A stretch of 64,000 nt of DNA. It comes from an uncultured Chromatiales bacterium (lineage in GTDB: Bacteria; Pseudomonadota; Gammaproteobacteria; Poriferisulfidales; Oxydemutatoraceae). Position numbers and translations under genes: made by a program. The DNA lies in NCBI GenBank assembly GCA_964347615.1, contig CAYFZO010000002.1:22261-86260 (forward strand), given 5' to 3'. Numbering within the stretch: the stretch's first letter is position 1; the number at the start of each line of letters is the position of its first letter. The notes beneath the pieces are model-generated. The model searched no databases, was not told the DNA's origin, and saw nothing but the letters and a program-made list of their open reading frames with translations. Shown here piece by piece: positions 14,313 through 61,833 of this stretch.

Positions 14313-15185
14313 ATGCCCGTAAAAAAGGCCAAAAAAAGCAAAACCAAAAGCGCGAGAAAGACCGTCTCGCCGCGGAAAAAGACCGTCAAGAAAAAGGCGG
14401 TGCGCAAAAAAACCCGCAGCGCGGTCAGGAAAAAAAGCGCGACCGCGAAGAGAAAAACCGCAAGGAAAAGCGTGAAAAAAGGCGCCGCCAAAAGGCGAAC
14501 CGCGTCTTCCGCCAAGAGAACCGTCCGTAAGAAGACCGCCCGCAAGAAGGTTGTCCGCAAGAAAGTCACCAAGAAAGTCGCCCAGAAAGTCACCAAGAGT
14601 GCGGCAAAAAAGAAAAAGGTCGCCAAGACGGCGAAGCGAAAGCCAGCACCCAAAAAGAAAACCGCAGCCAAGAAAAAGGCCGCTTTGAAACCACGCCGCG
14701 CGGCGACCAAACCGAGAAAACAACCACGAAAAAAACCAGGGGCGCGCATGCTCAAGCCCAAGGAAGAAAACGCGTCGCTCAGGCCGTCCAAGGCCTATCA
14801 GATCAAAAAAGGCGAACCCTACATGAACTCCCAGCAGCTAGAACACTTCAGTAAGATGCTGTTGGATTGGAAGAAAGAGCTGATGAAAGAGGTGGACAGG
14901 ACGGTTGATCACATGAAGTCTGGCGCCACCAACTTCGCCGACCCTGCCGACCGGGCGACTCAGGAGGAAGAATTCAGCCTGGAGTTGAGAACCCGCGACC
15001 GGGAAAGAAAGCTGATCAAGAAAATTGACGAGGCGCTGGGCATGATGGACATGGATGAATACGGCTATTGCAGCTCATGCGGCGCCGAAATCGGCGTGCG
15101 GCGACTCGAAGCACGCCCGACCGCAACGCTTTGCATCGACTGCAAAACGATGCAGGAAATCAAAGAGAAACAGATTGCTGACTAG
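14313..15185 (+). CDS. dksA: DksA-family RNA polymerase-binding transcription factor with an N-terminal ~145-aa lysine/alanine/arginine-rich histone H1-like extension
   Basis: The C-terminal 140 aa aligns closely to E. coli DksA. Shared elements are the coiled-coil tip motif DRATQEEEFSLELRTRDRERKLIKKID and the C4 zinc finger CSSCGAEI...CIDC. The N-terminal part is AKKSKTKSARK...KKKK low complexity. A good RBS (AAGGAAA) sits 7 nt upstream of the 14313 ATG. The internal Met at about 14754 (MLKPKEEN) could give a canonical-length isoform. Confidence 0.8.
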   Translation: MPVKKAKKSKTKSARKTVSPRKKTVKKKAVRKKTRSAVRKKSATAKRKTARKSVKKGAAKRRTASSAKRTVRKKTARKKVVRKKVTKKVAQKVTKSAAKKKKVAKTAKRKPAPKKKTAAKKKAALKPRRAATKPRKQPRKKPGARMLKPKEENASLRPSKAYQIKKGEPYMNSQQLEHFSKMLLDWKKELMKEVDRTVDHMKSGATNFADPADRATQEEEFSLELRTRDRERKLIKKIDEALGMMDMDEYGYCSSCGAEIGVRRLEARPTATLCIDCKTMQEIKEKQIAD

Positions 15186-15263
15186 GGGGCCGACTAGGGG
15201 GCCGACCAGGGGGCCGACCAGGGGGCCGACCAGGGGGCCGACCAGGGGGCCGACTAGGGGCTG
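15180..15263 (+). repeat. 12-nt tandem repeat (GAC[T/C]AGGGGGCC) x7, in frame with and containing the dksA stop codon
   Basis: Seven head-to-tail units. Position 4 of each unit is T (making TAG) in units 1, 2 and 7, and C (making CAG) in units 3-6. The first TAG is the dksA stop codon. Confidence 0.9.
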
Positions 15264-15285
15264 ATTAAGGGGCGATCGGGGCAAA

Positions 15286-15330
15286 CGGCGGCACCGCCGC
15301 CAAGCGAGGTGCCGCAAAAAAGCGTTTTTT
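15286..15330. terminator. putative bidirectional intrinsic terminator between the convergent dksA and monooxygenase-cluster genes
   Basis: GC hairpin GGCACC-GCCGCCAAGCGA-GGTGCC (15290-15313) followed by the palindromic A6GCGT6 tract, which gives a U-run in either orientation. Confidence 0.45.
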
Positions 15331-15370
15331 GGGAGGAGACGTTCGCCCCGGGAATTTCAACTCTCCCGGC

Positions 15371-15592
15371 TCAACTCTCCTGATCCTGATCCTTCAGCCA
15401 CTGCCACGGAGTCTCTTTCACGATCAGGAAATAAATCCAGATGTTGCCGACCACTGCGATCAGAAGCAGCACCGCGGCCCCCAAGCTCCACAGCACGTTG
15501 TGCATCACGTCCCGAAAGCCGATGAACTCCATCAGTGCCCATATCGCGAAAGACCAAACCGCCATGGCGGCAAAAGCTGTTAAGGTTTTCAT
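15371..15592 (-). CDS. small 2-TM membrane protein of unknown function, last gene of the monooxygenase cluster
   Basis: I place the start at MKTLTAFAAMAVWSFAIWALMEF, with a strong RBS GGGGAGAA upstream. It has two hydrophobic helices and lies 30 nt downstream of the reductase stop. Confidence 0.45.
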   Translation of the reverse strand: MKTLTAFAAMAVWSFAIWALMEFIGFRDVMHNVLWSLGAAVLLLIAVVGNIWIYFLIVKETPWQWLKDQDQES

Positions 15593-15622
15593 GTTCTCCC
15601 CCTTGGTTGTCAAACCGTCGTG

Positions 15623-16750
15623 CTAGCGCCCGCCCGGTATCGTGCTTGCGTCCAAAAACTTATCATAGAAAATACTTTCTTCGCAAAGCCCGGCTTCGGT
15701 CAGCGCCTTGATGCCCGCGTCTATCATCGGAGGCGGGCCGCACATGTAAGCTTGGCAAACCGTGACGTCAAGCAGACCGGGTTCGATGTAACGGCGGTGG
15801 AGATGCTCGGTGACAAACCCCCGCGGCCCGTCCCAGTCGCTGTCGTCCGGCTCGTTGGAAAGCACGAATTCAAACTCGAATTTATGGTCTTTATGCCAGT
15901 TTGAACGGATCTTTTCCATTTCCTCCCGGCAATAAATATCGGCCTGGGTGCGTGCACCGAACAAAAACACCGCGTCGCGTTGAATCTGGTCGTTGCACGC
16001 GGCTTCGAGCACCGCCTTGACCGCGCTCATGCCGCTGCCGCCGGCGATGCAAATCATCGGTGTGTCGCCGTCGCGCAGATAAAAATTGCCGTAGGGCGCC
16101 ACCACCGTCAAACGCGTCCCTTCACGGTTTTCGCCGAACAGCCACTCGGTGAACTCTCCGCCGGGGACAAGCCGCACGTAAAAGGTAACTTCTCCCTGGT
16201 TTTCGTTCTCGGGCGCTTTGGCGAACGAATAACTGCGTGGTTTGCTCAAGCCCGGGTATGAAATCTCCGCGTACTGCCCGGCCAAGACCCCGGCGGGAAT
16301 CGGCTCGTCGCAAACAATCGTCATCTCCATGATGTCGTGGGTCAGGCGGCGCGCGGAATTCAAGCTGCCTTCCCGGGTCACGACCGCAATCTTGCCGCTC
16401 TCCTCGAGCTCGACTTCGACCGCAACGTCACTTTTCAGCGCGGTCTGGCAGGCCAGGATCATGCCCTGGTTCAGCTGTTCAGGCGTCAAGACGTAGGAAA
16501 AGTCGTTGAGTGCCTTGATCTTGCCTTCCTTCAAGAAGCACCTGCACGTGCCGCAGCTGCCGACCCTGCAATCGTGCGGCCAATCAAGTCCCGCGGCGAG
16601 CCCCGCGGCAAGCAGGTTTTCACCGGCTTTCACGGTCAGCTCGTGTTCCGAGTTGATTGTCGCTCGCCAATCTTTTTTCTTAAACAGTCCAAACACCGTG
16701 AATAAAACCGCTGAAGTTAACCTCACTGCACGGGACACGCGCTTTCCCAA
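15623..16750 (-). CDS. XylA/CymAb-type monooxygenase reductase (N-terminal plant-type [2Fe-2S] ferredoxin fused to ferredoxin-NAD(P)+ reductase)
   Basis: N-terminal CxxxxCxxC...C motif (CRVGSCGTCRC...ILACQ), FAD-binding RSYSFA motif and NAD-binding ICIAGGSGMSAV motif. There is an unusual hydrophobic segment at the extreme N-terminus (LTSAVLFTVFGLF). Confidence 0.8.
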   Translation of the reverse strand: MGKRVSRAVRLTSAVLFTVFGLFKKKDWRATINSEHELTVKAGENLLAAGLAAGLDWPHDCRVGSCGTCRCFLKEGKIKALNDFSYVLTPEQLNQGMILACQTALKSDVAVEVELEESGKIAVVTREGSLNSARRLTHDIMEMTIVCDEPIPAGVLAGQYAEISYPGLSKPRSYSFAKAPENENQGEVTFYVRLVPGGEFTEWLFGENREGTRLTVVAPYGNFYLRDGDTPMICIAGGSGMSAVKAVLEAACNDQIQRDAVFLFGARTQADIYCREEMEKIRSNWHKDHKFEFEFVLSNEPDDSDWDGPRGFVTEHLHRRYIEPGLLDVTVCQAYMCGPPPMIDAGIKALTEAGLCEESIFYDKFLDASTIPGGR

Positions 16751-16838
16751 AAATAAAAGCGCCTGAGCCCATGATAAATGAGATCAAGCGCTTTTAGAAC
16801 AGAGCTTCACGCCCGAAAAGCTTCCGCCCGGGATAAAC

Positions 16839-17498
16839 CTAGACGTTGATAGAGATATCCCGCAACCGCCCTTCCTGCATGTCGTCCGCCGTCGGGACCG
16901 TCGTGAACGGAATGATTTTCTCCTTGCTCGTGCTCGGATGGCTCTTCACTTTCTCAAACCACGCGCTGATAGCGGGTTTCGAATTGACCACGTCGGCACG
17001 TCCCTTGACGTGCAGCATATTGGCGCACGCCGACCAATGAATGTCGGCCAAGGAAAAGTCACCGCATATAAAATCGCCTTTTTTCGGCGGGTTGGCGATT
17101 TGCTTGTCCAATGCGTCGAGAATCGGAGCAAGCTCCGAAACGGAGTCGTCGGCAATCATCTGCTGCGCCCGTCCCATCGCGACGGTAATCCACTGATACA
17201 TGATTGCGCGGTGAACACCGTTTCTCGGCACCAGCGACGGACCGAAACCCTTGTCGTCAAGGTATGACATCACGGCCAAAGTGCCGTAGACCGCATATTT
17301 GATGTCTCTCAGGGCCGGTGCTACCCCGAGAGGGGAAGTGCCGCTGAAATCGGAATCGGCGCCGGCGCTGTTCGGGTCAATCACCTTGGCTTCAATGTCC
17401 ACGCCTTTCTCGGCGGCGGTCTGCAAACATTTGGCAGTATCGATGCACTTGGGGTGCCCGTAAATCAACATCCGATTCCGTAACTGATCGCCAATCAT
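16839..17498 (-). CDS. glutathione S-transferase-like protein
   Basis: GST fold. The N-terminal thioredoxin-like part has a Cys (HPKC) near the usual catalytic position, and the C-terminal helical domain carries the DFSLADI motif. The start may be the internal MLIYGHPKC. Confidence 0.55.
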   Translation of the reverse strand: MIGDQLRNRMLIYGHPKCIDTAKCLQTAAEKGVDIEAKVIDPNSAGADSDFSGTSPLGVAPALRDIKYAVYGTLAVMSYLDDKGFGPSLVPRNGVHRAIMYQWITVAMGRAQQMIADDSVSELAPILDALDKQIANPPKKGDFICGDFSLADIHWSACANMLHVKGRADVVNSKPAISAWFEKVKSHPSTSKEKIIPFTTVPTADDMQEGRLRDISINV

Positions 17499-17606
17499 CT
17501 CAAAACGCCTCCTTTTTCTGGCTGGTCATCAAGAACACCGCCGCTTCAGCTACGGCGGCGCACGGGTCGCTGCGCCCGGCAGCTCCCAGCTGGCAAAACG
17601 CCGCGC

Positions 17607-17789
17607 TTAGCTCTCGTGTACGGTCAGTGCACCGGACGGGCACAGCTTGACCGTTTCACGAATGACTTCTTCGCTGGCGCCACTTTGGTCGATTACAAAC
17701 TTACCGTCCTCAACCTTGAACACGGTAGGCAGGTTCTCGACGCACTTACCCGCGTGGATGCAGGTGCCCTCGTCCCATCTTACTTCCAT
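17607..17789 (-). CDS. divergent 4Fe-4S mono-cluster (Fer4_19/DUF1271-like) small iron-sulfur protein
   Basis: 60 aa with the Cys pattern C-x-H-x-x-x-C...C-P (GTCIHAGKC...KLCPSGAL) typical of the divergent mono-cluster ferredoxin family. Confidence 0.5.
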   Translation of the reverse strand: MEVRWDEGTCIHAGKCVENLPTVFKVEDGKFVIDQSGASEEVIRETVKLCPSGALTVHES

Positions 17790-17940
17790 TGTCGGTATCC
17801 TCCATATATATCAAAACGAATAGGCACAAAAGTCCTTTCCGTCGTTATCGCTCCGGAACGACCCGCCCCGGAGGCAAAAGCACGGGTCCCGGGGGCAACC
17901 CCGAGACCCGCGATTTCTACCACGTCGGCCCGGTGAACCC

Positions 17941-19083
17941 TCAGGCGTAGCCCGCCTGCTTGTTCATCAGGTCCGCAATCCGTCGCTCGCCTTCAGAAGC
18001 CTCCTGCTCGTCCCACTTCTTCAACTGCTTCTGCATCATGGTGTGGAACAGCATCGGCAACAGCGCCACGCCGAACAACGCAAAATAGCCGTAGCCCGTG
18101 TTCGGAGCGCCCACTTCGTCCAATTCCCAAAAGTGGGTCTCGCCTCGGTCGTGGTGATCCGCCTGACGACCGATCTCGATGAAATACCAACTCGTGAACG
18201 CCGTCGAGTTGTCCCACGAGTGGCGGTAGTCTATCGGCTGACCCTTCTCCCGGATCAGACCATAGTGCTCCATGTAGTTCAGCGCCTCCAACTCAAAGTT
18301 CGAAACCAACCACATCACCGCCAAGCACGCTATACCCGTCCACCCGCCGGCGAACCAGAACAGGAACAACGACGGAAGGCTCATCGCGTAGCCGCGAAGC
18401 CAACGATTCTGCCACGACAAAAACGGAACTCCCAGACGCTCCAAGCGTTGCTTCTCCATGCTGTACAGAAACTTCGACTGACCCAGGTGGGACTTCGGAA
18501 AGTGAAGGTAGATGCTGCGACCGCGCGGGGACGTCGCCGGATCGTCGTCGCAACCCAACTCCAGATGATGGTTGTATACGTGCGCGTAGCAAAAATGCGA
18601 CGAACAACTCAATCCCATCATCCACCGCGAAATCACGAAACTGAAGCCTTTCGTGTGCGCCAACTCGTGTCCGTAAATTATCCCGATCCCCATGAATATC
18701 GCCGAAGACAGCGCCGCGCCCGCCAGTTGCGAACCCGTGATCCCCTGATACACCGTGATGCCCAGAATCTCCATCGTCCCAAAAGGCACCGCGTTCACGT
18801 ATTCATACACTCGCCACGCCAGGTTCAACTGCAACAGAATGAAAACCGCAAGCATCAGATACATCACCGCGTTCTGAAACGCCGGTATCCCATACAACTC
18901 GCCGTCCTCGTCGAAACCCGCGCCCATCGTGCGCCACGGCGTCAATGCGTCCAGCACAATCGCCATACCGAGCATATACACGCCCAGCCATACCCACGGG
19001 CCGCCTATGAATACGCCGTACATGCCCAGCACAATCGAAATCGGCGCCAGCATGTAACGACCGTTAATCAGGAACTTCTTCAT
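17941..19083 (-). CDS. AlkB/XylM-family integral-membrane non-heme diiron monooxygenase (alkane/xylene/p-cymene hydroxylase-like)
   Basis: Carries the histidine boxes HELAHTKG and HVYNHH. Also carries the AlkB-family signature NYMEHYGL and the ADHHDRG box, with multiple TM helices. I set the start at the ATG at 19081-19083 (MKKFLINGRY), which has a GGAGG RBS. Confidence 0.85.
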   Translation of the reverse strand: MKKFLINGRYMLAPISIVLGMYGVFIGGPWVWLGVYMLGMAIVLDALTPWRTMGAGFDEDGELYGIPAFQNAVMYLMLAVFILLQLNLAWRVYEYVNAVPFGTMEILGITVYQGITGSQLAGAALSSAIFMGIGIIYGHELAHTKGFSFVISRWMMGLSCSSHFCYAHVYNHHLELGCDDDPATSPRGRSIYLHFPKSHLGQSKFLYSMEKQRLERLGVPFLSWQNRWLRGYAMSLPSLFLFWFAGGWTGIACLAVMWLVSNFELEALNYMEHYGLIREKGQPIDYRHSWDNSTAFTSWYFIEIGRQADHHDRGETHFWELDEVGAPNTGYGYFALFGVALLPMLFHTMMQKQLKKWDEQEASEGERRIADLMNKQAGYA

Positions 19084-19292
19084 CGTTAAGCCTCCAGCTT
19101 GTTTACGTTGTTTATGAGGTTTGTTCTCTGTTTCCGGGAGGATTCGGAACCCAGCCCGACGTATAAAAGAGAGTGCCGTTCGGCACCCGCTTAATCTCAA
19201 TTGCATACCACAATTGCCCGACTACATCCAAGCATACATGCAAAAGCCTCTATATAACAATTGGTTAAGCTTGTGAATATCAGGCGGCAACC

Positions 19293-19691
19293 CTATGTCG
19301 AGAACGCGAGCGACACCGAATTGATGCAGTAGCGCAGGCCGTCGGGCGGCGGCCCGTCGGAAAAAACGTGCCCCAGATGCGCACCGCACGAGGCGCAATG
19401 CACCTCGGTCCTGACCATGCCGTGCGAACAGTCGGGTTCGGTTTCAACGCAAGTCGAATCAAGCGCTCGGGAAAAGCTCGGCCAGCCGGTACCGGAATCA
19501 AATTTGGCTTCGGATGAAAACAACGGCGACCCGCAACAGCTGCATTCATAAATCCCGGGGGTCTTGCAGTCGTGATATTCGCCACTGAACGCAGGTTCGG
19601 TACCTTTGAGTCGGCACACGCGAAACTGCTCGGGGCTTAGGGCGGCGCGCCACTCGGCTTCCGACTTGACGACCTTTTTCACGGCTTGCAC
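19293..19691 (-). CDS. msrB: peptide-methionine (R)-S-oxide reductase
   Basis: SelR domain with two CxxC zinc motifs ([20 protein letters not shown]) and the catalytic GTGWPSF region. The start is uncertain (GTG at 19689-19691 proposed). The track TTG at 19769 abuts the pnp stop and is unlikely. Confidence 0.8.
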
Positions 19692-19769
19692 CCCACTTGC
19701 GCCCCACCTGCACCTCGGGCCGACGGCGGAATCAAGTCTTGGAAAAGCGGCAAAGCCCCCGCGGGACAA

Positions 19770-21845
19770 TCAGGCTGAATCCCTCATGCTGAGGCGAATG
19801 CGCCCTTGCCTGTCGATTTCAAGCACTTTGACCTTGACGACGTCGCCCTCGCTCAACACCTCCTCCACGGTCTTGAGCCGCCGCCCGTCGGCGGCAACCT
19901 GAGAGATGTGCACCAAGCCGTCCCTGCCGGGAAGAATCGTAACAAACGCCCCGAAATCAACGATTTTCGCAACCCGCCCGTCGTAGATCTTGCCGACCTC
20001 GACGTCGGCGGTCAATTCTTCGATTCTGCGTCTTGCTTCCTCCGCGGATGCGCCGTCGCTGGAGGCGATAACAACTTTGCCGGAATCGTCAACGTCTATG
20101 ACCGTACCCGTCTCTTCGGTCAGCGCGCGAATCGTCGCGCCTCCTTTGCCGATAATGTCACGAATCTTGTCGGGATTGACCATTATCGTGAGCAGCCGCG
20201 GCGCGTACGGCGATAATTCGCCGGGGGCGCTAATGACGGCTTCCATCTTTTCCAGAATATGCAGCCGAGCCTCTTTGGCTTGGTCGAGCGCTACCGCCAT
20301 GATTTCCGGGGTCACGCCGTCAGCCTTGATATCCATCTGCAACGCGGTTACTCCTTGCTTGGTCCCGGCAACCTTGAAGTCCATGTCGCCCAGATGATCT
20401 TCGTCGCCGAGGATATCGGTCAGCACCGAAAACTTGTCGTCCTCCAAGATGAGCCCCATCGCAATCCCGGCCACCGGTGCCTTCAAAGGCACACCGGCGT
20501 CCATCAACGCCAAGCTGGTACCGCACACCGAGGCCATCGAACTCGAACCGTTGGACTCGGTGATCTCAGAAACCACCCGCAACACGTAGGGGAACTCGTC
20601 CGGGTCCGGCATGACCCCGAGCAAGCCTCGTTTCGCGAGCCTGCCGTGACCAATCTCGCGGCGCTTGGGTGAACCCATAAAGCCGGTTTCCCCGACGCAG
20701 TAAGGCGGAAAGTTGTAGTGCAGCATGAACCGGTCCTTGCTCTCGCCTTCAATCGCGTCGATGATTTGCGCGTCTCGGTTGGTACCCAAGGTCGCCGCCA
20801 CCAACGCCTGCGTTTCACCGCGGGTGAACAACGCGCTTCCGTGGACGCGGGGCAAGACCCCCGTTTCTATATTCAGCGGCCTGACGGTGCGGGTGTCGCG
20901 TCCGTCAATACGGGACTCGCCGGAAAGGATGCGTCCGCGGACAATCTTTTTCTCAAGCTTGGAAAAGCAGCGCAAAGCCTTGTTCTGCTCTTCTTCGTCC
21001 TCGATGCTTTCGGCCAGTTGATTGCGAAGTCCATCGAGGCGCGTGCGGCGCTGCATCTTGTCGGCGACCGTGTAGGCCTCCTCGACCGGCGCGCGAAAGC
21101 GAGCTTCCAGATCGGTCTCCAGGCCCTCGTCGGTCGCCGCCGGCGTCCATTCCCAGCGCGGCTTTCCGACTTCATCGGCGAGTTCGCGGATGGCGCGGAT
21201 CGCCGGCTGCATCTGCTCGTGTCCGAACATCACCGCGCCCAGCATCTGCTCCTCGGTCAGCAGCTTGGCCTCGGACTCGACCATCAGCACGTCTTTTTCA
21301 TTACCCGCAACGACCAGATCCAAGTCCGACTGCACCAACTGGCCGAAAGTCGGGTTCAGCACGTACCCCCCGTTCAGATAGCCGATCCTTGCGGCGCCGA
21401 CCGGGCCGTTGAAAGGAATGCCCGATATCGCAAGCGCGGCCGAGGCACCGAGCAACGCCGGCACGTCGGCGTCCACGTCCGGGTTCAGCGACACCACCGT
21501 TGCGATAATCTGGACTTCGTTGATGAATCCTTCCGGAAACGACGGGCGCAACGGGCGGTCTATCAACCTGCAAATCAAGGTTTCCTTTTCGCTGGGACGT
21601 CCTTCCCGCTTAAAAAAACCGCCGGGAATCTTGCCGGCGGAATAAGTGCGTTCCTGATAGTTGACCGTCAGCGGGAAAAAGCTTTGATTTTCGGCGGCTT
21701 CGCGCCGTCCGACGGCCGTAACCAGAACGATGGTGTCGGACACGTTGACCAGCACCGCACCGTCGGCTTGGCGCGCGTAGCGGCCGGTCTCCAGCGTCAC
21801 ACGGTGTGCGCCGTACTCGAACGTCTTGGTGGTGGGATTCAGCAA
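19770..21845 (-). CDS. pnp: polyribonucleotide nucleotidyltransferase (PNPase)
   Basis: 691 aa. The N-terminus [21 protein letters not shown] matches E. coli Pnp. It contains two RNase PH domains, a KH domain and a C-terminal S1 domain. A non-ATG (TTG) start is likely, as in E. coli. Confidence 0.95.
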
Positions 21846-54867: not shown

Positions 54868-55626
54868 TCACGCATCTTCGGAAACCGAGCGTTTGCGGCG
54901 GCGATCCGGCAGAAACTCCTCGTATATTTCCGGGTCCGGGTCCAACTCGACCACCTTGCCGTCGATCCAAGTCACCACCTTGGTTTCGGTCAGATAGGCG
55001 ATAAAGTGGGCACGTCTGTAAGCGCGACGGAGCGCCGCCAAGACACGCTCCTGATCCAAACCTTCCGGCTCGTCCTGTTTTTGTTCGGACACTTTTTTCA
55101 CTGCTGCTTCGTTTTTCCCTCTCTCCAGCACGGTCGGCGCTCGCCCGGCGTTGTCATACAGAGTCCAATCGTCAACGCAACGGCGATAGATTGCCTTGAA
55201 GTTTCCCAAGCCGCTTGCGAAACGGTGACGTATCACTTCTCCGGGAACGTCGTGCCCGCCTTGCCGCACCCTGAATTCTACCCGCCGGATCGCCTCTTCG
55301 GGAGCCGGAAGCAACAGGAATATCAGACTGACGCGGTATCCGTTCTCGCGCCATCCGTGAATCCGACGGATATAACCCCGCCCCGACAACGTCGTCTCAA
55401 ACGCGAAGTTCCTGCCGGCGCGGGCGTGACCGTCAATATCCTGCAACAGCAACCGCCCGGCGCGGAAACCCGAAGCACCCGACTGGAACGGAGACAAGCC
55501 CGCCGAAATCAAGTCCGCATTGACAAAGATCAAGCAATCCTTTTCGCGAGGCAGATACTCCCGGGCGAAAGTCGTCTTGCCGGCGCCGTTCGGCCCGGCG
55601 ATGATGATGATTTTCTTGGTTGGCAT
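54868..55626 (-). CDS. zeta-toxin/AAA_33-like P-loop kinase with ~70-aa C-terminal extension
   Basis: Walker A IIIAGPNGAGKTT near the N-terminus, plus a zeta-toxin-like core (ETTLS...). I set the start at ATG 55624-55626 (MPTKKIIII). No epsilon-like antitoxin ORF is recognisable upstream. Confidence 0.6.
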   Translation of the reverse strand: MPTKKIIIIAGPNGAGKTTFAREYLPREKDCLIFVNADLISAGLSPFQSGASGFRAGRLLLQDIDGHARAGRNFAFETTLSGRGYIRRIHGWRENGYRVSLIFLLLPAPEEAIRRVEFRVRQGGHDVPGEVIRHRFASGLGNFKAIYRRCVDDWTLYDNAGRAPTVLERGKNEAAVKKVSEQKQDEPEGLDQERVLAALRRAYRRAHFIAYLTETKVVTWIDGKVVELDPDPEIYEEFLPDRRRKRSVSEDA

Positions 55627-56006
55627 CGCGACCTCTCTGCAACGCCCTCGACAGCCGGCAAACCGCGCTTGAACCTGCACGGGCGGGCGATTTTATCACC
55701 CTGCTTGGCAGTAACCTGCCGTCGCGTACGCCAAGTGAGCAAGACAACGCTCGCAAAGGACGTTGTTAAGGGCATGGGTGCGATGCCGACGTCTCGCCGC
55801 GCCTAGCCGACTACGAGTTCTCCCACAACTACCAACACCCGCACCGGGTGCTGGCTTCGAGCATTCCAATGGAGTATCTTGAGCACCTCGGAATAGCTGT
55901 TTGAAAGAGAGGCCTTTTGTCTCATAATGTCCTGAACCCATACATTGACGTAGAGCACGTACTCTCATACATTATCCTGTTCTCGTATTTCCCTCAGGAT
56001 GGGTCT

Positions 56007-56552
56007 ATGAAGAAAATAAGCATCAAAGAGACGACATTCGAACGTCTCCGCCGCCACGCAAAGCCGCTAGAGGACACCTCGGACACCGTTATCAACCGGG
56101 CACTGGACGCGTTGGAGATGCGAGATGGAAACGCAGCACCCCCAGAGAGAGCAGACGATGAACGAAGAATAGACCCAAGCATGCTCCCAGACTTGAGATA
56201 CACCAAGATCATCGATGCATCCGTTGACGGAAGCGATATAGCACGACCAGAATGGATTCGCTTGTTCGGCCGCATCGTCATCCTTGCCACGAAAAAGCTC
56301 CCTGATCTTGAGAAAGTTAAGCAGCTATGTTCTGTGAAAATGGTCGAGGGATGGAAAAAGGATAAGGGCTATCATTATCTGGAAGAAATCGATAAATCAG
56401 TCCAGGGAAAGAGCGCGAACGCTACCTGCCAGTCAGTGGTAACAGCGGCGCAGGAACTCGGCATCTCCATTAACATCGGACTCCAGTGGAGGCGCAACAA
56501 AAAAGCGCCGCACCCTGGAGAACGAGCACGTTTGGTCATATCCGAATCTTAG
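56007..56552 (+). CDS. hypothetical protein with N-terminal ribbon-helix-helix-like DNA-binding domain fused to a ~130-aa unknown C-terminal domain
   Basis: I set the start at ATG 56007 (MKKISIKETTFERLRRHAKPLEDTSDTVINRALDALE has a beta-alpha-alpha pattern typical of Arc/MetJ/CopG RHH). GC is about 50% versus about 65% for the core. Confidence 0.45.
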   Translation: MKKISIKETTFERLRRHAKPLEDTSDTVINRALDALEMRDGNAAPPERADDERRIDPSMLPDLRYTKIIDASVDGSDIARPEWIRLFGRIVILATKKLPDLEKVKQLCSVKMVEGWKKDKGYHYLEEIDKSVQGKSANATCQSVVTAAQELGISINIGLQWRRNKKAPHPGERARLVISES

Positions 56553-56837
56553 CAGTCCGGCAACCGGACCAGGGCTGTGTGAAGCAAGGCTGGGAAAAAT
56601 ACGCGAGCCGATAATAAAACACCGAAAGAAGATGGAAAAGGCACGTTGATTCCGGATTATGAAACAGAAATCGATTACCTGAACTGCGAATCAATATCTC
56701 GAAACGCCCAGTGAGTATACTGTCTCATTAGAGGCCGCTTGATTCCCCGATGTCATAATGTACTGAGCCAGCCGCGCGGCAACTTGCTTGGTTGTTGAAC
56801 TTCAGCTATCGTTGTCACCGGGAACCTTGGAGGCCCA

Positions 56838-57098
56838 ATGATGAGCAAAGAAGACTTACGCGACTCCCGTTTTTCACAGGACCGGACACGCCCCAGTGAG
56901 GCTGAAGTTATCCAGCTTCTCCAAGAAGCGGCACGACAGTACGAGGAGTACATGCGTCTTGCAGATCTGGCTGACATATCCGCGGAAGATGAAATCATCT
57001 ATCCAAGATACGCATGGGACAATCCTATAGGACTTATAGTGGAGAGGCCGTCGAATGCCGGGTTGAGTTGGTCTTCAGAACGGATTGAAGCGCATTGA
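56838..57098 (+). CDS. small hypothetical protein (86 aa)
   Basis: ORF in the low-GC island, convergent with the AAA+ ATPase gene. It has no recognisable motifs, and I cannot confirm it is coding. Confidence 0.25.
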   Translation: MMSKEDLRDSRFSQDRTRPSEAEVIQLLQEAARQYEEYMRLADLADISAEDEIIYPRYAWDNPIGLIVERPSNAGLSWSSERIEAH

Positions 57099-57213
57099 GC
57101 CAGCCAAGAGAAGCCATCACGTATTCCTTAGCAAGGCGAAATTCCGCAATATCAGGAGAAGCTTCTATAAATCTTGTTCAACTGAACTCGGTGAACTCGC
57201 CCGGCACAATCCT

Positions 57214-58179
57214 TTACTTCTCCTCCTTTCCATAAGCCAGACGTCGTTCATGCAGCATTTTTTTAAGGCGGGTTGCCGTTACCGTCGTCTTGTCGGATAA
57301 GATCGAGTCTTTAATAGCATCGTTGCACGCTTGCGCAATTTCAGAGTGGCTGAGGCCTTCGGATTCTTTCACCACAATTTTCAAAGAAAAACCTTTATTA
57401 ATAAACTGTGCAAGGCGATTTTCTACGAGGCGCTTGATTTCATTTTCGTCGGGAAGGTGGTAGTAAAGCACGTCGTCAAAGCGGCGAAAAAGCGCTCTGT
57501 CCAAAATCTCAGGATTGTTGGTGGCTGCCACAATCAAACTGAGTGAATCATCTTGCTCGATAAACTGTAGGAACGAGTTAAGGACCCGCCGCATTTCACC
57601 CACGTCATCACTTCGCCCCCGTTCACCTCCGATTGCATCGAACTCATCGAATAGATATACCCCGCGTTGATCTTTGATTACGTCGAAGATTTGCCGAAGC
57701 TTGGCACTAGTCTCACCCATGAATTTGGTTACCAGCTTATCCATGAGGATCGTATGAAGCGGCAGATGCAGCTCACCCGCCAGAGCGGCTGCTGTCATCG
57801 TCTTGCCGGTACCCGGGGGGCCTGCCAACAAAAGTTTGCGGCGGTTGTTCAGACCATATTTCTTTATTTTTCCCTGCTGGCGATACTCCTGCAGGATACG
57901 GCTGATGCGATCTCGCATACCGTCGGAAACAATTAGATCCTTAAGCCGCTCCCGAGGTTCAGTGGAAATTACTAAGTCACTTAATTCTCGCTTAAAGGGG
58001 ACGATTTGAACCTGAGTCAATTTAGCCTTATCTATGATGGCGCGTATTTCACGCGCGAGCGAACCGTGCCCCTGATTTGCTTCATGAGCCGCCAACTGCA
58101 AGGCAACGGTAACGAACCGCTCGCGCTCGTCCCCGAAATGAGAACGTATAAGTGACTTTAGTTGATCAGCTGTGGCCAT
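57214..58179 (-). CDS. SpoVK/CbbX-like AAA+ ATPase (classic-clade AAA, PF00004-like) with ~110-aa N-terminal domain
   Basis: Walker A LLAGPPGTGKTMTA, Walker B VYLFDEFDAI, the second region of homology ATNNPEILDRALFRRF and the FMGETSAKLRQIF motif. Lies 157 nt downstream of hsdR on the same strand. Confidence 0.8.
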   Translation of the reverse strand: MATADQLKSLIRSHFGDERERFVTVALQLAAHEANQGHGSLAREIRAIIDKAKLTQVQIVPFKRELSDLVISTEPRERLKDLIVSDGMRDRISRILQEYRQQGKIKKYGLNNRRKLLLAGPPGTGKTMTAAALAGELHLPLHTILMDKLVTKFMGETSAKLRQIFDVIKDQRGVYLFDEFDAIGGERGRSDDVGEMRRVLNSFLQFIEQDDSLSLIVAATNNPEILDRALFRRFDDVLYYHLPDENEIKRLVENRLAQFINKGFSLKIVVKESEGLSHSEIAQACNDAIKDSILSDKTTVTATRLKKMLHERRLAYGKEEK

Positions 58180-58336
58180 GGCCGCTCACCGAGCCGGATT
58201 CTCGCACTTTATAGCCCACCGATTGCAAACCCAATCTCAAAAAGCGCGGCAAGCAAGGCCAAAGCCGCGTGGACAAGTGCCTCAAGTGCCTAAGTAATAC
58301 TCGGCGACAAGAAATCAGCCGCCCGGCGTCAGCCGG

Positions 58337-61300
58337 TTAATGGGTGGTTGCTTCGGCGTAGACCGGCGACGGGAGCGTCGGGTATGCGCGACGCACGTGA
58401 CGAAAGACTTCCTCCGATATCTTCCTGACTTCTTCCTCCGTGTAGAGGTTGGCGGAAAGTCCACTTTTGTCGTTGAAAAGAAACCTTTCGATGTCGGTTC
58501 TTACGCCGTCGCTCGTGCTCTGTTTCTCCGTCCACTGATAGGCGCAAAGCGATCGGGTTTTCAACGTCTTCAATAAGTCAACCGAAACGTTTTTGATCCG
58601 CTTGATCTCCGCCTTGCTCAAATCCGGCTTTCTCAGGAGGTCGAAAATCGCCAGCTGCTCCTCGTCCAAACCTTCTCGAACCGCCCGGCTTTCCTCCTCG
58701 TCCAACTCATCAGTCAGCTTGATCAACTCCTCAAAAACCCTCTCGATCGTTGCTTGGTCTTTATTGCGGTTGTATTCCTCGACCAGTTTCTCGTAGTGCG
58801 TCTGGAAGTTGGTGCGCATCGGATTTTGCTTCAGCAGGCGTTGCAACTTTTTTTCCACGATATGCATCAGCGTTTGGGTGGCGGTACGTCTCGTGGTGCT
58901 TCTCTCAAACTCCACTTTCAGTTTCTTGGCGTTGACGTGGCTGATATCGTAAAGCTTCGTGTCTCTGACCTCGCCGTCGGGAGGCTGAGCCACAATCGCC
59001 TCATCCACGACGCCGTGCAGCGCGCGGATGACGTCGCTGATGTCCGCTCTATCGCGGTCCTGTTGCAGGCTCTTGTAGATGATGCTGATGGCCTTGTGCT
59101 CCGCCCGGTACTCTTCCATGCCCTTGACGTTGATGCAGGCTTTGTAGCAGTTGAAAACCTCACGGCACATCACCTCGAAACGCTTGCGGGTTTCGTGGCT
59201 TTCGTTGACCGCCTCTTTGCAGGCTACGATGGCAGCGTTGAGAGCAAAGCCTTCCTGCCCGATGACGTCGTCCAATGAGGTCTGTCGCTCTTCAAGGAAC
59301 GCCCGCACCAGCGCAATCGCCTGAGCCAGCTTCTCCAGCAGCTTTTCGATGGGCTCGGTGGGACCGCCACCGCCTTCGCCCTCGCCCTCGCCCGGCTCTT
59401 GGGCACCAAAAGTCGCCAGCGCACGGCGCAGATGCTGGAGGATGCCGCAGTAATCCACGATCAAGCCGTTGGTCTTGCTTTCGTTGACGCGGTTGGCGCG
59501 CGCGATGGCCTGCATCAAGGTGTGCGCCTTGAGCGGCTTGTCGAGGTAAAGCGTCGAAAGGCTGGGGACGTCGAAACCGGTCAGCCACATCGCGCAGACG
59601 ACGGCAATGCGGAAAGGATGGTCCTGATGCTTGAACGCCTCGTCGAGCGGCATGGACACCTTGCCTTGAAACTCAGGCCTGCCGCGCATGGATTCCGGCA
59701 GGTCCACGCCGTCCTTGATGAGCCTGCGGTGCGGCCTGATGTCAATACCCCACTTGCGAAACGCCTCGACCTCGCCTTGCTCCTCGCTGATGACCACCGC
59801 CATACGGGTTTCTTTCATCCAGTTGATCTGGTTCCGGATCTGCACCGCTTCCTGTTCGTCGACGCATCGCTTTTCCGCTGCCTCCAACTCGCCGATGCGC
59901 TCGCGCCAATGACGGTCGATCAACTCGTACATGCGCACGCAGGTCACCTTATCTATGCAAACCAGCATCGCCTTGCCGCTTTCCCAAGCCGTCGAGTAGT
60001 GTTCGACGAAGTCCCGCGCGACCTGATCCAGGCGTTTCTCCGCGGTCATCACGTGGTAATCCCGCCTGAGCTCCTGCTCCAGACGCTGCACCACGTCTAT
60101 ATCCTCGGTCTCCAAATCCCCGAACTCTTCCAGCTTGTTCGCAATGCGCTCGTTCAGGTCGCCGACGGCGATGTCGAGCTTGTCGCCGCGGGCATCGTAG
60201 TAAAGCGGCACCGTGGCCCCGTCGTCCACCGCGCGCTGAAAGTCGTAGGTCGAGACGTATTCTCCGAAAACCCGCCGCGTGATCTCGTCGTCCTTGAACA
60301 ACGGCGTGCCGGTGAAGCCGATGTAACTCGCGTTGGGCAACGCGTCGTGCATATTGCGCGCGAGATCGCCGTACTGAGTGCGATGAGCTTCGTCGGTGAT
60401 GACAATGACGTCGTCCCGGTCGGAATACGCCTCTCCCGGCCCGATTTCCTGATTGAACTTCTGAATCAACGAGAAGACGTAGGACTTGTTCTCGCCGAGC
60501 AGACGTTTCAAATGCGTACTGCTCGCCGCCCGGCAATCGTCGCTCTCGTTCGTCACTTCGCAACCGGCGAAAGTCTTGTAAATCTGCACGTCGAGGTCGA
60601 GACGGTCGGTCAGCACCAGAAAGGTGAAGTTGCCGCTGAGTCTGCGATGCACCTTGCGGGTGAACATGACCATCGAATAACTCTTGCCCGCGCCCTGCGT
60701 GTGCCAAAAGACGCCCAGCCTGCCCTTGCGCGCCTTGCGCTCGCGCACCGCCTCGATCGCGCGGTTGACGCCGAGAAACTGATGGTTGCGCGCGAGGATC
60801 TTCCTTGTCTTGCCGGTGGAATCGTCGAAAAGGATGAAGTTCTCGAACAAGTCCATGAAGTTGCGCTTGTCGCAGACGCCCTTGAGCAAGGTCTCCATGT
60901 CCACCCTGCCTTCGTCGCCCTCGGCCAGCCGTTTCCATTCGTGAAAATGTCCCCACTCGCTGGTGATCGACCCGATTTTCGCCTTGTCGCCGTTGCCGAA
61001 CATGATGATCGCGTTGTAATGGAACAGATGCGGGATGGTGACACGATAGTCGGAGTAGTTCTTTTCAAAAGCCGTCCGGAGATTCCGATGGATGTTCTTC
61101 AACTCGACGAAGAGCAGCGGCAAGCCGTTGATGAACCCGACGACGTCGAGCCGACGGCGATAAAGATCGCCGCGCACCCAGAGCTCACGCACGCAGAGGA
61201 AGCGATTGTTCTCCGGCGCGTCAAAGTCAAAGACCCGCAGCCTCTTTCGGACCGACTCGCCCTTGTCGTTGCGAAAAGAAACCTGCACGCCGTCGCGTAT

Positions 61301-61588
61301 CAGCGCATACTTCTCCTTGTTGGCGGGCACGACGTCCTGCGAAGCGGTCGGAGCGGCAATCTTCCGCACCGCGTCGTCATAAGCCTCATCAGGCAGGCCC
61401 GGATTGAACTCGACGAGCTTCTCGCGCAGGGTGCGCGTCAGCACCACTTCATGGTCGGAAGCTCGACCCAGCAGACTGTCCGGCCCGAAGTCCTCCCTGT
61501 TGTAAGCGTAGACGGATTCCCAACCGAGCTGCTGCTCCAGATGATCCGCCATCGTTTTCTGGACGATGGTGTCTTCGGTGTAGTTCAT
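58337..61588 (-). CDS. hsdR: type I restriction enzyme R (restriction/helicase) subunit
   Basis: 1083 aa with an HSDR_N nuclease domain at the N-terminus, SF2 helicase motifs (GAGKSYSMV, VITDEAHRTQYG, FTGTP) and a C-terminal domain. ATG at 61586-61588 has a GGGAGAA RBS. No hsdM or hsdS is present in the window. Confidence 0.9.
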   Translation of the reverse strand: MNYTEDTIVQKTMADHLEQQLGWESVYAYNREDFGPDSLLGRASDHEVVLTRTLREKLVEFNPGLPDEAYDDAVRKIAAPTASQDVVPANKEKYALIRDGVQVSFRNDKGESVRKRLRVFDFDAPENNRFLCVRELWVRGDLYRRRLDVVGFINGLPLLFVELKNIHRNLRTAFEKNYSDYRVTIPHLFHYNAIIMFGNGDKAKIGSITSEWGHFHEWKRLAEGDEGRVDMETLLKGVCDKRNFMDLFENFILFDDSTGKTRKILARNHQFLGVNRAIEAVRERKARKGRLGVFWHTQGAGKSYSMVMFTRKVHRRLSGNFTFLVLTDRLDLDVQIYKTFAGCEVTNESDDCRAASSTHLKRLLGENKSYVFSLIQKFNQEIGPGEAYSDRDDVIVITDEAHRTQYGDLARNMHDALPNASYIGFTGTPLFKDDEITRRVFGEYVSTYDFQRAVDDGATVPLYYDARGDKLDIAVGDLNERIANKLEEFGDLETEDIDVVQRLEQELRRDYHVMTAEKRLDQVARDFVEHYSTAWESGKAMLVCIDKVTCVRMYELIDRHWRERIGELEAAEKRCVDEQEAVQIRNQINWMKETRMAVVISEEQGEVEAFRKWGIDIRPHRRLIKDGVDLPESMRGRPEFQGKVSMPLDEAFKHQDHPFRIAVVCAMWLTGFDVPSLSTLYLDKPLKAHTLMQAIARANRVNESKTNGLIVDYCGILQHLRRALATFGAQEPGEGEGEGGGGPTEPIEKLLEKLAQAIALVRAFLEERQTSLDDVIGQEGFALNAAIVACKEAVNESHETRKRFEVMCREVFNCYKACINVKGMEEYRAEHKAISIIYKSLQQDRDRADISDVIRALHGVVDEAIVAQPPDGEVRDTKLYDISHVNAKKLKVEFERSTTRRTATQTLMHIVEKKLQRLLKQNPMRTNFQTHYEKLVEEYNRNKDQATIERVFEELIKLTDELDEEESRAVREGLDEEQLAIFDLLRKPDLSKAEIKRIKNVSVDLLKTLKTRSLCAYQWTEKQSTSDGVRTDIERFLFNDKSGLSANLYTEEEVRKISEEVFRHVRRAYPTLPSPVYAEATTH

Positions 61589-61597
61589 TTTTTCTCC

Positions 61598-61616
61598 CGA
61601 TATACCGGATATATCG
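61598..61616. promoter_or_regulatory. near-perfect palindrome immediately upstream of the hsdR RBS (candidate operator)
   Basis: CGATATA-CCGG-ATATATCG (an 8/7-nt inverted repeat centred on CCGG) lies 9-27 nt upstream of the hsdR start codon in the 245-nt hsdR-S8 intergenic region. Confidence 0.3.
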
Positions 61617-61833
61617 TACTCACTAATGCCTTGAATTTCTTACCTCGCGTCCATACTTGAGCGGGCAACACAAGGCCGCCGCAGTTAAAAATATCAACTG
61701 GGATTTTCAACAAGGCGACGAGGAGGAATATCCTTAATCTCCGGCGCACGACCGCCTAACTCGGCAAGCCGCCGCGCACTTTCCCGTTCTATCAATGCTT
61801 TCAACACTGTATAACTTCGTATGAAAATATATT

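Follow-up and report, generated by a model that had tools for sequence, protein, structure and literature searches.

A conserved five-gene cassette encodes a distinct AlkB/XylM-related membrane monooxygenase system with a possible role in dimethylsulfide demethylation

A cluster of five genes in an uncultured Chromatiales bacterium of the Oxydemutatoraceae (GenBank assembly GCA_964347615.1, contig CAYFZO010000002.1, positions 22,261 to 86,260; this whole stretch of 64,000 nucleotides is referred to below as the window) codes for all components of a membrane monooxygenase system that belongs to a distinct family related to AlkB and XylM. Its central component is a membrane hydroxylase of the diiron type (HYD), which is accompanied by a mini-ferredoxin, a protein with a glutathione S-transferase (GST) fold, a reductase (RED) and a small peptide with two transmembrane segments (2-TM peptide). 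Our preferred interpretation, to which we give a probability of roughly 45%, is that NADH drives the system, that it works as a XylMA-like membrane monooxygenase and that its substrate is dimethylsulfide (DMS) or a close methyl-sulfur compound, with methanethiol and formaldehyde as products.

Results

The five-gene cluster

The ORF (open reading frame) listing of the window places all five genes in the same direction, on the minus strand, within 15371–19083. The AlkB/XylM-fold hydroxylase HYD (17941–19083, 380 aa; PF00487, E=6e-25) has a GGAGG 7 nt upstream of its ATG and is followed by the mini-ferredoxin, of the Fer4_19 (DUF1271) type (17607–17789, 60 aa; PF06902, E=1.4e-14), by the GST-fold protein, with Cys18 at the catalytic position (16839–17498, 219 aa; GST_N and GST_C matches), and by RED, a XylA/BenC-type reductase with plant-type 2Fe-2S, FAD and NAD domains (15623–16696, 357 aa from a GTG at 16696). 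The 2-TM peptide (15371–15592, 73 aa) is the last gene of the cassette; its start is most likely the ATG at 15592, ahead of which lies the ribosome-binding site AAGGGGGAG. On the 2-TM side the cluster is flanked by dksA (14313–15185, plus strand), and on the HYD side by msrB, pnp and rpsO on the minus strand, as assigned by ORF and family searches.

These identities and flanks agree with those of an earlier, first-pass annotation of the same DNA, all five gene assignments of which were confirmed. It had also described the partner set as atypical for xyl, cym and alk operons, which we uphold: neither within the window cluster nor next to it did the ORF list and Pfam reveal a rubredoxin or a dehydrogenase for alcohols or aldehydes.

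HYD belongs to a discrete family with an altered iron-site signature

HYD falls in the FA_desaturase superfamily (PF00487), and a PDB sequence search returned AlkB (8f6t/8sbb) as its sole relative, at E ~1e-25. An AlphaFold2 model calculated with 39 homologues (predicted local distance difference test score 79, predicted template modelling score 0.82) has the AlkB fold with six transmembrane helices; in a Foldseek search, this predicted structure matched 8f6t/8sbb only, with TM-scores of 0.72–0.74. In NCBIfam, no model matched HYD.

At the sequence level, HYD is 30% identical to XylM of pWW0 over the full length of the alignment, about 30% identical to ferredoxin-reductase-type AlkBs (Polaromonas CJ2, Hydrocarboniclastica; 33% over the catalytic core) and 24–26% identical to rubredoxin-type AlkBs (22–26% in the comparison with rubredoxin-partnered AlkB/FtAlkB). 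A neighbour-joining tree, calculated without support values and read with three high-GC leaves disregarded because antisense ORFs had been picked for them, placed the HYD family in a single tight clade, with the ferredoxin-reductase AlkBs as sister and XylM next. Searching 1.84 billion representatives (sequences clustered at 50% identity) yielded a single representative of the family over the full length (614 bits); the next match of full length scored 186 bits, at 37% identity. Members of the family are thus at least 51% identical to one another within the sampled loci and at most 37% identical to anything else. By these sequence comparisons, the HYD family is a discrete clade and a cousin of the alkane and xylene monooxygenases; the novelty proposed in the first-pass annotation is borne out, as tree, identities and representative search all put HYD outside the characterised AlkB and XylM clades.

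The motifs of the window HYD are HELAHTKG, AHVYNHH, NYMEHYGL and GRQADHHDRGETH, of which HELxHTKG, AHVYNHH and NYMEHYGL are kept family-wide. NYMEHYGL (residues 269–276), in which the Glu, the His and the second Gly are invariant and the remaining positions nearly so, conforms to the NYxEHYG(L/M) signature of AlkB/XylM enzymes. Histidine box 3 of the family reads GRQ(A/G/C/S)DHHxRGETH (signature GRQxDHHxRGETH): its first His, present in AlkB (RHSDHH), is replaced by Gln307 in the window protein and by Gln in 261 of 261 family sequences. Out-group pattern matches carry His at this position in all but a few cases, and those few matches are unreliable. In FtAlkB, both irons are bound by nine His and one Glu (His137, 141, 167, 171, 172, 272, 311, 314, 315 and Glu271), and His311 ligates Fe2, the iron closer to the substrate methyl group (PMC10113152). 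HYD retains eight of the nine His ligands and the Glu, and so lacks the full AlkB ligand set; three additional residues, His163, His194 and His317, are invariant in the family. The earlier description of the histidine boxes was right about the NYMEHYGL signature and missed the His-to-Gln change in box 3. This invariant, family-only substitution at an Fe2 ligand fits an altered chemistry. Judging from its sequence, HYD would be AlkB/XylM-like in its working, yet it departs from either named family in its ligand set and its clade placement.

The cassette is conserved among sulfur oxidisers and methylotrophs

A scan of one genome per species yielded 80 loci with HYD relatives of 51–93% identity, which we compared by tblastn with window and Methylophaga proteins and by similarity clustering of all neighbouring ORFs; the resulting ORF-family maps are only partly annotated. 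Neighbourhoods were counted in the 66 loci whose sequence extends 3.5 kb or more downstream of HYD. The ferredoxin, GST, RED and 2-TM genes follow HYD in the window order in 18 of these 66, five of them without extra genes like the window, the other 13 with an additional truncated globin and seven of those 13 also with a FadL/TodX channel. Other arrangements comprise globin-RED (16/66), GST-2TM-FadL (11/66) and orphan copies of HYD with no partner behind them (14/66). A FadL/TodX channel was found in 18 of the 66 loci overall, and some loci contain up to three GST paralogues. The five-gene set is a conserved cassette rather than a chance adjacency, the GST and Fe-S genes being conserved neighbours of HYD, a point that the first-pass annotation had left to a neighbourhood survey. 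Neither rubredoxin nor alcohol or aldehyde dehydrogenase genes were noted in the partly annotated maps of the 80 loci, whereas out-group AlkB clusters do carry alcohol/aldehyde dehydrogenase genes.

The family is patchily distributed among sulfur oxidisers and methylotrophs, with representatives in Methylophaga sulfidovorans, in Hyphomicrobium spp. and Thiobacillus, in purple sulfur bacteria and in thiotrophs of sponges (Oxydemutatoraceae, Porisulfidus). Several of the host genera are classical DMS degraders. The gene is also present in Tara Oceans data and in many sponge-symbiont genomes.

The most elaborate setting is that of the Methylophaga-type loci (L037, L057, L085–L089 and L094 in our numbering). 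Here, one operon combines an acyl-CoA-dehydrogenase-like (ACAD-like) gene with those for a PAS histidine kinase and a regulator of the FixJ type; it is located upstream in L037 and several others, with the ACAD-like gene at the downstream end in L094 and L085–L087. Then come a divergent CbbQ/NorQ AAA+ gene and a gene for a 700-aa VWA protein, and onward HYD, truncated globin, Fer4_19, GST, RED, 2TM and a FadL/TodX channel. Beyond FadL, the series continues with genes for another globin, which is secreted, for SCO4226-like and nitronate-monooxygenase-like proteins and for a protein of 400 aa that weakly matches methyltransferases. Thiobacillus, Hyphomicrobium and relatives have a HYD-globin-RED core with the same sensor module.

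Two of these accessory groups deserve separate description. The CbbQ/NorQ-type AAA+ ATPase and a VWA protein of 660–710 aa are encoded divergently from HYD (L037:4709–7658, L085:6776–9693 and L094:6781–9590, all minus strand) and are absent from the window. NorQ and NorD insert non-heme iron into nitric oxide reductase and, by analogy, the CbbQ/VWA pair could load or reactivate the diiron site. The ACAD-like flavoprotein is translationally coupled to the PAS histidine kinase and FixJ-type regulator (L037:934–4656, plus strand), and the trio lies near HYD in 27–28 further loci from alpha-, beta- and gammaproteobacteria; it is possibly a flavoprotein-based sensor module.

Additionally, we observed a second, orphan HYD copy on a different contig, which belongs either to this genome or to a sister genome (L081:8806–9953); its DNA is 99.2% identical to window 17941–19083, and the similarity ends no more than 5 nt from the coding sequence. 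In two further pairs of loci (L002/L003, L012/L013), the copy in the cluster and the orphan are 98.0% and 100% identical within genomes and about 82% identical between genomes, and this likeness within and divergence between genomes points to gene conversion that keeps two differently regulated copies alike. The orphan gene is divergent from a gene for a 322-aa regulator with MerR and B12-binding_2 domains (L081:7680–8648, minus strand; same position in L003–L014), which is CarH/LitR-like and possibly light-responsive. BolA, rhodanese and NUDIX genes lie nearby, and the arrangement is kept in about ten sponge-symbiont genomes.

Partner proteins

The mini-ferredoxin scores 54.3 bits against PF06902 (cutoff 24), with Cys10, His12, Cys16 and Cys50 invariant in 12 orthologues. 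It resembles the Thermotoga 4Fe-4S ferredoxin 1rof, relative to which the second Cys is replaced and His12 is conserved.

Pfam matches of the GST-like protein to GST_N, GST_N_2 and GST_N_3 and to GST_C and GST_C_3 are weak but consistent (1e-4 to 1e-5), and its best PDB matches are plant Phi-class GSTs (5f06), at E=2e-14 across both domains. It thus combines a thioredoxin-like N-domain, including an invariant cis-Pro61, with a helical C-domain. Cys18 aligns with the catalytic Ser of the Phi class and is retained in 27 of 29 orthologues, His or Asp occupying this position in the extra GST paralogues of some loci.

RED contains Fer2, FAD_binding_6 and NAD_binding_1 domains (Pfam), is BenC-like in NCBIfam (1e-63), and is 38% identical to XylA and 44% identical to the AlkB-partner reductase of Hydrocarboniclastica. 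As an adjacent reductase of the XylA type, it occurs in 36 of the 66 loci. An alignment of 45 homologues revealed an N-terminus, MFG(L/F)F-KK, conserved in more than 40 orthologues and similar in XylA and further XylA-type reductases, so that RED most likely starts at GTG 16696 (MFGLFKKKDW). The N-terminal hydrophobic segment that had been singled out earlier as foreign to XylA is consequently a start-codon artefact of the over-extended ORF (15623–16750); an over-long version was likewise listed for the 2-TM peptide (15371–15613).

The 2-TM peptide has two hydrophobic segments, predicted to span the membrane. Its homologues occur in 36 of the 66 loci, in most of these behind the RED or GST gene, and it is a candidate small subunit or assembly factor of HYD.

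A link to dimethylsulfide in Methylophaga

By cluster look-up, the Methylophaga thiooxydans protein EEF81234.1, annotated as 'Fatty acid desaturase domain protein', is a member of the HYD family. Its locus, L094 (scaffold GG657883.1 of strain DMS010), has the order SCO1/MauG, MtoX (SBP56), 6PGD, LysR, two small ORFs, CbbQ, VWA, followed by HYD, globin, Fer4_19, GST, RED, 2TM, FadL and further genes. The window genes have collinear orthologues there (HYD 68%, ferredoxin 54%, GST 42%, RED 48% and 2-TM 32% identity), and mtoX lies about 8 kb from this collinear cassette.

Published RNA-seq of M. thiooxydans by Kroeber and Schaefer shows DMS induction of HYD, RED and globin of 29- to 136-fold, and of HYD by more than 100-fold (PMC6548844 Table S6). 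In the same table, values on DMS versus methanol are 618 versus 12 for 'oxidoreductase NAD-binding', 601 versus 21 for the HbN globin, 17350 versus 37 for mtoX, 1428 versus 15 for SCO1/MauG and 669 versus 11 for the LysR gene 'cysB'; the annotations and strands of six entries fit genes of L094. The study reported no DMS monooxygenase activity and no dmoA or ddh gene in M. thiooxydans, and DmoA to be absent from Methylophaga, and its authors regarded the first DMS-degrading enzyme as unknown (PMC6548844). Ever since the postulate of a 'DMS methyltransferase' (PMC6548844), this first enzyme has been missing in degraders such as Methylophaga; besides DmoA, Ddh, Dso and Tmm, a review of June 2026 and a preprint of December 2025 name only a DMS methyltransferase still to be identified, marked '?' in the preprint. 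DMS induction together with the nearby mtoX makes the HYD cassette a candidate for this missing enzyme. A published description of the HYD system was not found in the literature on AlkB-type enzymes, on DMS and mtoX, and on the host genera.

Beyond DMS010, mtoX lies within 10 kb of HYD in the Methylophaga loci L033 and L085–L089, as in L094, and also in L076 and L059, both betaproteobacterial, the latter with mtoX in duplicate. Near HYD of Hyphomicrobium GJ21 (L070) are a SCO1/MauG homologue and a weak PDO/rhodanese match, and in a sea-ice metagenome-assembled genome (L093) a persulfide dioxygenase, a Pyr_redox_2 protein and SulP flank HYD.

Separately, in metagenome loci collected around mtoX (L102–L161; for example L124:1652–2188 and L161:3081–4823), an SCO4226-like gene of 91 aa is the immediate neighbour of mtoX in some 24 of the 80 loci, and a Fer4_19 mini-ferredoxin 52–60% identical to that of the cassette is so in at least two loci without HYD. 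The SCO4226-like and Fer4_19 proteins may have a place of their own in methanethiol metabolism.

Non-coding elements, composition and age of the locus

The intergenic region upstream of HYD (19084–19292, minus strand) holds a terminator-like hairpin after msrB (19171–19188, minus strand), detected by hairpin scan, from which we infer that HYD probably has its own promoter, in about 19084–19170; a sigma-70 consensus scan of 15100–19900 gave no promoter match. Between HYD and the ferredoxin gene, a stem-loop of 14 pairs, 11 of them G-C (17881–17912, minus strand), is followed by the T-tract CTTTTG and may, from its sequence features, act in partial termination or attenuation and thereby keep the expression of HYD higher than that of its partners. 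Rfam searches of the whole window at gathering score gave no match, and thus no riboswitch lead.

The GC content at third codon positions (GC3) of the five genes, 0.71–0.74, is the same as that of their neighbours, and the order pnp-msrB-cluster-dksA-xseA is also found in L002 and L013, and from HYD on in L001, whose contig starts there; HYD of these three loci is 72–93% identical to that of the window. A recent horizontal insertion is ruled out by this neighbour-like GC3 and by the gene order shared among such diverged genomes, and any insertion must be old.

Three further features of the window were observed. DksA has an N-terminal extension of about 160 aa (14313–14790, plus strand), rich in Lys, Ala and Arg, histone-H1-like and with strong A-skew, which precedes normal DksA_N and zinc-finger domains; in L001, L002 and L013, the ORFs in the place of dksA are 271–358 aa long, which suggests that relatives keep the extension. 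A perfect-looking 12-nt tandem repeat, GACCAGGGGGCC, with 6.8 copies and 97% matches (15180–15260), runs from the last dksA codons into the convergent gap ahead of the last gene of the cluster. The region 54868–63993, with a GC3 of 0.37–0.57 compared to about 0.75–0.85 elsewhere in the window, seems, when read by eye, to encode a P-loop protein resembling zeta toxins and to contain an ORF of 1083 aa that is similar to type I restriction enzymes and another, low in GC, of 719 aa; it is probably a foreign defence island.

Discussion

Proposed mechanism and comparison with known systems

We infer the substrate, the accessory roles and the electron path as follows. NADH would reduce the XylA-type RED, at its FAD and then its 2Fe-2S cluster, and electrons would pass from RED to the diiron site of HYD either directly or via the 60-aa ferredoxin, with the 2-TM peptide as a small membrane partner. 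The substrate would be a small hydrophobic methyl-sulfur compound, most likely DMS, whose methyl carbon HYD would hydroxylate to the hemithioacetal CH3-S-CH2OH; this unstable product would break down into methanethiol and formaldehyde. The Cys-type GST-like protein may handle the reactive product, by hydroxymethyl transfer to a thiol or by reduction of methanethiol mixed disulfides, and methanethiol would be processed onward by methanethiol oxidase where mtoX is present. That no alcohol or aldehyde dehydrogenase was seen near HYD fits a spontaneously decomposing product, and the FadL/TodX channel found in part of the loci points to an external hydrophobic substrate.

In its architecture, the system resembles XylM/XylA of the TOL plasmid pWW0, where a membrane diiron hydroxylase is likewise paired with a 2Fe-2S/FAD/NAD reductase and no rubredoxin, and where the xyl operon encodes a FadL/TodX-type channel, XylN, of the kind that some HYD loci carry. 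It differs in box 3 (RQxDHH versus NHxNHH in XylM), in its separate clade, in lacking benzyl-alcohol and benzaldehyde dehydrogenases, in its extra Fer4_19, GST-like and 2-TM components and in its thiotroph and methylotroph hosts. The nearest out-group, giving the best E-values in a plasmid tblastn with HYD, consists of the ferredoxin/reductase-type AlkBs, which use the same type of reductase, as a fusion in Polaromonas naphthalenivorans CJ2 (pPNAP01) and as a separate protein on a Hydrocarboniclastica marina plasmid; their clusters, however, carry GMC oxidoreductase, aldehyde dehydrogenase, acyl-CoA ligase and AraC regulator genes, keep the box-3 His (RHSHHH) and contain no GST, Fer4_19 or 2-TM genes. 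AlkB with its rubredoxin AlkG (FtAlkB, 8F6T/8SBB) shares the fold, eight His ligands plus the Glu, and NYxEHYG, whereas HYD has no rubredoxin partner, has Gln at the His311 position and has the extra invariant His163, His194 and His317.

Two further systems are comparable in proposed function or in genetic organisation. DmoAB of Hyphomicrobium sulfonivorans performs the same net reaction that we propose, DMS + O2 + reductant giving methanethiol and formaldehyde. DmoA is a soluble, FMNH2-dependent, luciferase-like enzyme, whereas HYD matched only PF00487 (Pfam, E<=0.01) and the AlkB fold; any shared function would thus be analogous, not homologous. In the isoprene monooxygenase cluster, a soluble diiron oxygenase is coupled to the glutathione transferases IsoI and IsoJ, which process its reactive product, offering an analogy for the genetic coupling of HYD to a GST-like protein; the HYD cluster differs in having no IsoG/IsoH-type partners, a GST with Cys at the catalytic position and an oxygenase of the membrane type.

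Points against DMS as substrate

Several observations weigh against a role in DMS demethylation. The 64-kb window contains no mtoX, globin, FadL or sensor genes, and among mtoX-anchored metagenome loci (80 in total), none of the 46 that span at least 8 kb has HYD within 10 kb of mtoX, indicating that HYD-mtoX adjacency is lineage-restricted. MtoX also serves methanethiol from sources other than DMS, which fits such a restricted adjacency. In the GST-like protein, the canonical Glu-Ser glutathione contact is Gly-Thr. Tags of Table S6 were mapped to L094 by annotation strings and strands alone, and a FadL-like tag (906, plus strand) mismatches the strand of the cassette FadL gene. In the RNA-seq study itself, the 'desaturase' was interpreted in terms of membrane repair (PMC6548844). 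Induction by DMS could also be indirect, via sulfide, peroxide or methanethiol stress. DMS is membrane-permeant, and a FadL channel is not obviously needed for its uptake. The proposed DMS role of the family draws on sequence, gene context and published expression.

Alternative interpretations

Among the alternatives, the best placed, though unlikely, is a hydrocarbon monooxygenase acting in marine or sponge settings on short or medium alkanes, alkenes or alkyl-aromatics, with the GST-like proteins opening or detoxifying epoxides or other electrophiles, as in the isoprene and styrene pathways. The AlkB fold, the alkane and xylene monooxygenases as nearest relatives, FadL/TodX channels alongside HYD as in xyl and tod operons, and the multiple GST paralogues of some loci would all suit such an enzyme, and Methylophaga is reported to be implicated in hydrocarbon degradation by stable-isotope probing (PMC3936186). 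However, no alcohol or aldehyde dehydrogenase, acyl-CoA ligase or IsoG/H-like gene was seen in the 80 partly annotated locus maps, while such genes are present in the closest true AlkB clusters; the hosts are thiotrophs and methylotrophs, not classical oil degraders; and the M. thiooxydans cassette is DMS-induced and sits inside the mtoX island.

Somewhat less likely still, the substrate may be another organosulfur or C1 compound of DMS and methanethiol metabolism, such as dimethyl disulfide, methylthio-alkanes or S-methyl thiol conjugates, or the reaction may be an S-oxygenation instead of a C-hydroxylation. This shares the sulfur-linked context of the DMS interpretation; a Cys-type GST suits thiol/disulfide exchange, and Fer4_19 and SCO4226-like genes adjoin mtoX where HYD is absent. 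Against it, the growth substrate that induces the cassette is DMS, and the sequence does not discriminate between small thioethers.

Least probable is a housekeeping or stress function in which the system would modify or repair membrane lipids or quinones when the cell is stressed by sulfide or oxidants. A housekeeping role was suggested earlier from the dksA/pnp setting, and the 'desaturase' reading of PMC6548844 is akin to this interpretation. It could appeal to the desaturase/hydroxylase superfamily of HYD, to the conserved pnp-msrB-cluster-dksA-xseA synteny among housekeeping genes, with msrB adjacent, and to the second HYD copy beside a CarH/LitR-like MerR/B12-binding regulator, but it fits the rest of the family poorly and is unsupported given the patchy thiotroph and methylotroph distribution, the companion FadL/TodX uptake channels, dedicated sensor kinases with their two-component regulators, truncated globins and (in several lineages) mtoX, the far closer relation to AlkB/XylM than to acyl-lipid desaturases, with the AlkB-specific NYxEHYG kept, and the more than 100-fold induction on a specific growth substrate, DMS (PMC6548844). 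Detoxification coupled to glutathione, also raised in the first-pass annotation, is possible.

Implications

Returning to DMS demethylation, we tentatively propose, with slightly less confidence than for the activity itself, that the HYD family may be the missing monooxygenase, bound to the membrane, with which Methylophaga, Thiobacillus, Hyphomicrobium and numerous uncultured thiotrophs of the sea and of sponges demethylate DMS. If so, it would constitute a third, non-homologous route from DMS to methanethiol, built on a diiron site of the AlkB type in which one ligand of Fe2 is altered, and on dedicated partners: a mini-ferredoxin, a Cys-GST and a 2-TM subunit, joined elsewhere by a CbbQ/VWA activase and globins. 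Among the biogenic sulfur gases of the ocean, climate-active DMS is the main one, and the cassette offers a concrete five-gene candidate for the start of its breakdown.

Whatever the substrate, the combination of an AlkB fold, a changed iron ligand and unusual partners bears on how the reactivity of membrane diiron sites is tuned. The Gln in histidine box 3 provides a perfect sequence marker for counting the gene in metagenomes, and many of the 'alkane 1-monooxygenase' labels (KEGG K00496) in thiotrophs probably do not indicate alkane degradation.

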